Assembly: GCF_044324785.1 (NCBI RefSeq) | Contig: NZ_CP172127.1 | Source of the DNA: Escherichia coli | GTDB taxonomy: Bacteria; Pseudomonadota; Gammaproteobacteria; Enterobacterales; Enterobacteriaceae | Length of the DNA stretch: 64,000 nucleotides | Direction: 5' to 3' (one strand) | Shown: piece by piece, positions 62,823 to 62,951 of the stretch | Layout: every line of letters begins with the position of its first letter | How positions within the stretch are numbered: the first letter of the stretch is position 1 | Program-made: the position numbers and the translations under genes | Notes under the pieces: model-generated | What the model was told of the DNA's origin: nothing | Seen by the model: only the letters and a program-made list of their open reading frames with translations | Database searches by the model: none

Positions 62823-62951
62823 ACGCCTGATGCGACGCTGACGCGTCTTATCAGGCCTACACGCTGCGATTATGTAGGCCGGGTAAGCAAAGCGCATCCG
62901 GCATTGTTTTCCCCCTCGCCCCTTTGGGGAGAGGGCCGGGGTGAGGGGAAA
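62823..62951. repeat. REP/BIME cluster plus a GC-rich palindromic motif between araA and araD
   Basis: REP copies gcctgatgcgacgctgacgcgtcttatcaggcctac and tgtaggccgggtaagcaaagcgcatccggca, then ccccctcgcccctttggggagagggccggggtgagggg. Confidence 0.8.

Follow-up and report, generated by a model that had tools for sequence, protein, structure and literature searches.

A GC-rich palindrome lies between araA and araD in the window, by which we mean the whole stretch of 64,000 nucleotides of Escherichia coli DNA that was analysed. Its position between a cluster of REP sequences and a ribosome-binding site raises the question of what this sequence is and whether it serves the arabinose operon. Judged by its sequence, the motif belongs to the BoxC repeats, a family that has also been published as PIT, TM_ECO and HPG2. 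When the different lines of evidence are read jointly, it is very probably an ordinary BoxC copy and a largely neutral passenger without a dedicated ara function. The family is already known and long described and the araA-araD copy is an ordinary one; the sole locus-specific information is a common presence/absence polymorphism of BoxC in the ara operon.

Structure of the spacer and identity of the motif

In the list of open reading frames araB (59589-61289, + strand) is followed by the upstream cistron araA (61300-62802, +), which encodes L-arabinose isomerase, was named from RefSeq in matching E. coli records and ends with the stop codon TAA at 62800-62802 (+). The downstream cistron araD (62971-63666, +), encoding L-ribulose-5-phosphate 4-epimerase, was placed by its reading frame, to which the RefSeq araD start ATGTTAGAAGATC aligns; its ATG is at 62971 (+) and its Shine-Dalgarno (SD) sequence AGGAG, at 62961-62965 (+), is unchanged across all aligned alleles. 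The spacer between the araA stop and the araD ATG is 168 nt and holds, in this order, two REPs, the BoxC motif and a 9-nt tail. The first REP (palindromic unit) is GCCTGATGCGACGCTGACGCGTCTTATCAGGCCTAC at 62825-62860 (+), with its head at 62825-62834, its tail at 62848-62860 and an internal stem, I2. The second, at 62874-62902 on the - strand, is inverted with respect to the first, with its tail at 62874-62886 and its head at 62893-62902 (pair I1). In the head/tail signature scan the inverted pair made up one BIME unit of about 85 nt, and the gap from the second REP to the motif is about 3 nt.

The BoxC element (type B-mm in the TM_ECO nomenclature), assigned by sequence identity, extends over 62906-62951, and its G-rich strand is the + (sense) strand; relative to BoxC as published, the araA-araD copy is oriented on the - strand. 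Within it the 38-mer ccccctcgcccctttggggagagggccggggtgagggg at 62911-62948 (+) has the three-arm layout CCCCCTCGCCCC-TTT-GGGGAGAGGG-CC-GGGGTGAGGGG. The C-rich arm (62911-62922, +) represents the 'mm' variant: it has a G at the position at which full complementarity to arm 1 would call for T. G-rich arm 1 (62926-62935, +) is the central purine strand of the proposed triplex and contains the first two G-tracts of the G-quadruplex (G4), and G-rich arm 2 (62938-62948, +) is the third strand of the proposed triplex and the partner of the C-arm in the RNA hairpin via G-U wobble. Beyond the 38-mer the element takes in GTTTT at its left end and AAA at its right end, both of which lengthen the outer inverted repeat I3 (62909-62922 and 62938-62951; 14 nt, 86% complementary). 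The distance from the 3' end of the 38-mer to the araD SD is 12 nt. Between BoxC and the SD lies the tail CGACCTCTC (62952-62960, +), which is allele-specific: in the alignment of alleles its CGA was also found in BoxC-less alleles and its CCTCTC was unique to the BoxC allele. The first-pass annotation, made from the letters alone, had described a GC-rich palindromic motif at 62906-62951 that adjoins two REP copies and is situated directly upstream of the araD ribosome-binding site, and all three statements were confirmed.

When the 23-nt G-rich half was searched with up to three mismatches, one match was found in the window and none in 100 dinucleotide-preserving shuffles. Given this result and about 19 recurrences per E. 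coli genome, the motif is more than chance. An Rfam scan of 62000-64000 (E up to 10) gave weak naRNA4 matches over both REPs, which we read as REP-derived. Over the motif the same scan gave only noise, namely naRNA4 at 62877-62936, a match that starts in the second REP (E = 0.85), and Antizyme_FSE (E = 8.6), both far under their gathering scores. A weak match to the sRNA C0465 was also seen 3' of araD at 63690-63807 (-); it scored 23.3 bits where the gathering score is 40 (E = 0.27) and is probably noise.

Positions 62913-62948 were identical at 36/36 nucleotides to TM_ECO no. 3 of K-12, a type B copy with one mismatch, and the number of identical positions to the other 22 K-12 copies was 28-34 (of 36-37). 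The window and the reverse complement of BoxC eco:2, which is located between yagA and yagE in K-12, have an exact run of 42 nt in common. Another K-12 copy lies upstream of fabI (envM), which we take to be the locus of Bergler's original envM paper. The layout of the family, CCCTC[T/G]CCC(C), a loop of 3-5 nt, GGG(G)AGAGGG, a TTA or CCG linker and GGGTGAGGG(G), was found in the window copy, as was the identity to published members under each of the names BoxC, PIT and TM_ECO. For HPG2, the 21-mer GGGAGAGGGCCGGGGTGAGGG was matched exactly at 62927-62947, with a T-rich tetranucleotide ahead of the C-rich arm, and four G-tracts of at least 3 were separated by loops of 1-7 nt. The sequence is dispersed, multi-copy, chromosomal and intergenic. 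The first-pass annotation had correctly suspected a dispersed repeat and had left the family unnamed; it can be named as BoxC, so that the motif receives its proper name and its apparent oddity is removed.

In the literature the same sequences appear several times. Petrillo et al. 2008 (PMC2267715) treated BoxC as a known E. coli family and gave 22 member sequences from K-12, and put its length and copy number, after Bachellier, at 56 bp and 32 copies. Earlier reports, according to the citations in PMC2267715 and PMC4666352, are those of Bergler 1992 and Bachellier 1996. Holder et al. 2015 (PMC4666352) regard the PIT element (Hoyne et al. 2000) as a rediscovery of BoxC and themselves studied the repeat as TM_ECO, with 23 copies in K-12 that are divided into type A with a TTA linker and type B with a CCG linker; the label 'mm' in that work denotes the CCCTCGCCCC arm. 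The G-quadruplex groups HPG1 and HPG2 of Kaplan et al. 2016 (PMC5100583) are the same sequences as well. In that paper, where motifs for transcription factor binding were scanned, no known motif was associated with the two groups and BoxC is never mentioned; the BoxC/PIT/TM_ECO descriptions predate it, one by a year and the others dating from 1992-2000. The literatures on BoxC/PIT, on the triplex-forming TM_ECO and on the G-quadruplexes HPG1/2 concern one element.

Compared with the E. coli BoxC copies, of which K-12 has 22-32 by various counts and 23 by our BLAST search, the ara copy is likewise intergenic and multi-copy but is located at araA-araD, where the site is empty in K-12. Only TTTT and AAA are common to the ara copy and the K-12 copies outside the core, the latter sharing outer flanks such as ...GCGCAC...GTC at one end and GAAC/GAAA...GCAC at the opposite end. 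With other type B copies only about 42-46 nt are shared, and as the ara copy is without the outer flank containing GCGCAC that most K-12 copies have, it is shorter than the 56 bp of the family. TM_ECO no. 3, on which the in vivo probing was done, has the same order of C-arm, loop, G-arm, CC(G) linker and G-arm, and the TM loci resemble the ara copy also in that the locus varies between strains. The HPG2 sequences likewise share with the ara copy the exact 21-mer, an upstream C-rich region and the T-rich tetranucleotide; the HPG2 list in PMC5100583 has 7 K-12 sites and ara is not among them. Two observations on the K-12 copies may be added. The outer flanks of type A copies follow approximately GCRC-N4-6-GTC before the C-arm and GAAC/GAAA-N5-8-GCAC after arm 2, an arrangement that to the eye resembles a mirror repeat more than an inverted repeat, and five K-12 loci each have one copy of type A and one of type B on opposite strands, as already published.

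Copy number, REP sequences and occurrence in other bacteria

The genome-wide count proposed in the first-pass annotation was carried out by BLAST with the element (46-61 nt) against 5426 complete E. coli genomes. The family was found in 5421-5425 of these, at a median of 19 places per genome (range 1-37) and at 23 places in K-12, which is the published number. Plasmids carried 48-60 of the about 95,000 places (<0.1%). The number of places differed widely between strains, from about 30-37 in strains such as IAI1 and the bovine STEC strains down to 2-5 in ATCC 25922 and a number of further human isolates; K-12, with 23, and O157:H7, with about 15, were intermediate.

The motif had been likened to the small repeats that accompany BIMEs, and an association with REP sequences had been proposed as a check. 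The 23 copies in K-12 are held by 18 loci, all of which were examined by the REP head/tail signature scan with the ara spacer as positive control. A REP within 50 bp was found at three loci (frlR-yhfS, pstA-pstB and fimH-gntP), a number near the approximately 10% expected from 355 annotated REP elements per genome, a figure taken from PMC4550694 (P about 0.25 by our own binomial estimate). At these three loci 31-45 nt of unrelated sequence separate REP and BoxC, and no junction sequence common to the three was found; nor was any REP signature detected inside 62906-62951. Given that 15/18 K-12 loci are without a REP within 50 bp and that the junctions have no common sequence, BoxC is not a general companion of BIMEs, and the likeness drawn earlier did not hold. 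BoxC is an independent family and no BIME component, and the two kinds of repeat simply share permissive intergenic sites. REP association as a general rule was rejected on the same counts.

It could still be argued that the motif at ara accompanies the BIME as an accessory (extra-REP) sequence and is structurally part of the REP cluster, as it adjoins the second REP with so small a gap and three K-12 copies lie 31-45 nt from REPs. This reading is highly improbable, since the frequency near REPs is about that expected and no REP-BoxC junction recurs, the BIME units of the ara locus occur one to three times without BoxC, the BoxC motif is found in distant phyla, and BoxC is handled as a separate family in the literature (PMC2267715, PMC4666352). 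REP/BIME and BoxC are alike in being short GC-rich palindromic intergenic repeats that are transcribed inside operons and vary in copy number at the ara locus itself, but their sequences are unrelated and REP is a two-arm palindrome whereas BoxC has three arms.

Outside E. coli, one genome per GTDB species was scanned for exact GGGAGAGGGNNNGGGTGAGGG, which yielded at least 120 stretches from at least 14 metagenome-assembled genomes (MAGs). Among the matches listed, the MAG hosts belonged to Alpha-, Gamma- and Deltaproteobacteria, Verrucomicrobia, Nitrospirales, Armatimonadota and Candidatus Gracilibacteria, with in addition one 'Proteobacteria bacterium' MAG and one unclassified bacterium (GL140_5). 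The pattern searched for lacked the C-arm, yet a C-arm with at most one mismatch was present 1-8 nt upstream in 122/139 complete copies (88%) among the matches listed, compared with about 0.4% by chance. The T and G variants of the C-arm, CCCTCTCCC and CCCTCGCCC, both recurred across phyla among these matches, and about 20 BoxC copies were present in the stretches examined from the AT-rich Candidatus Gracilibacteria. This spread among the MAGs listed agrees with the report of the motif from more than 260 genomes by Holder et al. (PMC4666352). In some MAGs the BoxC motif formed the core of a repeat of 100-190 nt. In the MAGs rich in the motif the shared units were mostly 40-190 nt, the long matches of 100% identity being self-overlaps of neighbouring copies, and no mobilisation gene linked to the motif was found there. 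A shared segment of 0.9-1.1 kb in one Verrucomicrobia MAG contained open reading frames that by eye did not look like a transposase. The strong conservation of a 35-nt sequence across distant phyla argues for some constraint on the family as a whole. The many copies of this 35-nt sequence in E. coli as well as in Verrucomicrobia, Armatimonadota and candidate-phylum bacteria raise the wider question of why it is maintained and how it spreads, a real question though not a new one.

Presence/absence polymorphism at the ara locus

The junction of BoxC with araD (query 62936-62995) was present in 1568 of 5358 E. coli genomes (29%). The motif is multi-copy in the genome and present at this locus in many strains, and thereby passes the test that the first-pass annotation had set, which a motif unique in the genome and not conserved across strains would have failed. 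In the remaining 71% the match started only at AGGAG, with the break exactly at 62961. Strains with BoxC at ara include IAI1, O26:H11 11368 and strains of O111 and O104:H4, and strains without it include K-12, a BL21 derivative, ATCC 25922 and O157:H7. The number of BIME units at the locus was one in ZH063, two in O103 ML775 and O157:H7 and three in K-12 (in tandem) and ATCC 25922; some genomes, whose BLAST pieces were not joined, may have more units. In the alleles compared, the last BIME unit always ended with GGCACGAAGGAG. The allele spans were 547, 632 and 717 nt for one, two and three BIME units and 601 nt for one BIME unit with BoxC.

The empty site reads GGCA-CGA-AGGAG and the filled site GGCA-TTGTTTT[core]AAA-CGA-CCTCTC-AGGAG. 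The difference can be described as two indels (48 + 6 nt) or as one 54-nt indel with two substitutions, and no target-site duplication was found in the alignment of filled and empty ara alleles. The left junction GGCATT is the sequence that is present between BIME units in multi-unit alleles. BoxC is probably a lineage-specific filling of the ara spacer beside a BIME, where other genomes have one to three BIME units and no BoxC. We consider it decidedly unlikely that BoxC is a miniature mobile element which occurs throughout the bacteria, is still active and is moved by undescribed machinery. On that reading the natural pair of filled and empty sites, with the element apparently in the position of a second BIME unit, would hint at entry or exchange of BoxC at REP borders via a single-strand, hairpin-dependent route. 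The variability of the ara locus agrees with the finding of Holder et al. (PMC4666352) that, in a comparison of 56 E. coli strains, TM_ECO loci were more rearranged than control sites. One to three BIME units versus BIME with BoxC constitutes a common natural polymorphism in a workhorse operon, and the pair of ara alleles could be used to test the effect of BoxC on mRNA stability, on translation of the next cistron and on local genome stability.

With regard to the strain analysed here, the best match of 10 kb of the window (52000-62000) among the 5426 complete E. coli genomes was 98.2-98.4% identical, and its lineage seems, from this comparison, to be absent from that set; Shigella or a deep or cryptic branch of Escherichia would be candidates.

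Folding of the element and possible effects on araBAD expression

The BoxC sequence may be viewed as three arms, consisting of the C-arm CCCTCGCCCC, a 3-nt loop, the near-complement GGGGAGAGGG, a 2-nt linker and the mirror G-arm GGGGTGAGGGG. An isolated single-stranded DNA of this type can fold back twice into a purine-motif triplex or, alternatively, form a hairpin or a G-quadruplex. In published experiments the isolated G-rich strand formed a stable intrastrand triplex as determined by CD and NMR, with a Tm of 70 C for type B mm (PMC4666352), and HPG2 showed a K+/Mg2+-dependent switch between G4 and hairpin by CD (PMC5100583). With the complementary strand present the duplex was formed instead (PMC4666352, PMC5100583), and in vivo DMS footprinting of the identical K-12 copy showed no stable structure (PMC4666352). 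It would appear that no stable alternative structure of BoxC is detected in duplex DNA or in living cells. In a G4-aware fold with DNA parameters the predicted energies of the two competing structures were nearly equal, -12.6 kcal/mol for the G4 and -11.3 kcal/mol for the hairpin.

At ara the element is presumably co-transcribed as part of the araBAD mRNA; its G-rich strand is the non-template DNA strand, so that the transcript would carry the G-rich sequence. As purine-motif triplexes are not expected to arise in RNA, only the hairpin (or an RNA G4) would be open to the element in this transcript, and in this respect the ara copy, with its G-rich sequence in mRNA, differs from TM_ECO. As RNA the 46-mer was predicted to fold into a hairpin of -26.5 kcal/mol, in which the C-arm pairs with the distal G-arm via G-U wobble; the hairpin with the proximal arm was predicted at -16.4 kcal/mol. 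The stable hairpin in the araBAD mRNA that the first-pass annotation had foreseen was thereby supported in absolute terms, but its stability is modest relative to composition-matched shuffles (z = -1.61, with 11/200 folding as well), and the fold of the 76-nt context gave z = -0.52.

Could such a hairpin end transcription between araA and araD? An intrinsic terminator or attenuator would have the GC-rich stem-loop that the transcript contains, but the stem is followed by AAACGACC and not by a T-run, and a scan of 62700-63100 found 0 terminator-like sites as well as 0 promoter-like sites. Termination at this position would moreover cut araD off from its only known promoter, and PIT elements, in the published tests (PMC4666352), had neither promoter nor terminator activity and no effect on RNA polymerase. 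We attach practically no credence to a terminator here.

An effect on translation or mRNA decay has more to be said for it. The element ends 12 nt before the araD SD with the G-rich strand as the sense strand, and the BoxC allele adds an anti-SD-like CCTCTC beside AGGAG; in the predicted folds CCUCUC is able to base-pair either with a G-arm or with a portion of the SD. The predicted opening energy of the araD SD was 4.9 kcal/mol with BoxC and 3.3-3.9 without, and is thus about 1-1.5 kcal/mol higher in the BoxC allele. These features count against a strictly neutral element. They could point to a cis-acting RNA regulator of ara, in which the hairpin or RNA G4 together with CCUCUC would tune the translation of araD or shield the araBA mRNA from 3'-to-5' decay. 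REP stem-loops stabilise upstream mRNA, and in K-12 the pstA-pstB spacer offers a parallel in which BIME and BoxC are present inside an operon. If this were true, carrier strains would have a different AraD:AraBA ratio.

Such a regulator is nevertheless unlikely. BoxC is absent from this position in 71% of E. coli genomes, in which araD is intact and the SD is the same. The predicted differences in accessibility are small, the probability of an unpaired SD being 0.37 with BoxC and 0.23-0.32 without, and accessibility of the araD ribosome site is predicted by these folding models to be similar across the four alleles. Neither the orientation of family members nor their distance from genes is fixed, and the published PIT assays (PMC4666352) also argue against a dedicated regulator. 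The preferred reading is that the ara copy is probably a largely neutral passenger and no dedicated ara regulator, which would add one stable stem-loop to those of the REPs and may mark a spot prone to rearrangement; little consequence for ara biology would be expected. It may still influence the translation of araD or the decay of mRNA segments to a modest degree.

A natural variant of the hairpin was noted in strain CFSAN018748, which has C for T at the column of window position 62942. Arm 2 of this strain is GGGGCGAGGGG, a perfect complement of the C-arm CCCCTCGCCCC, and the G-U wobble is replaced by a G-C pair.
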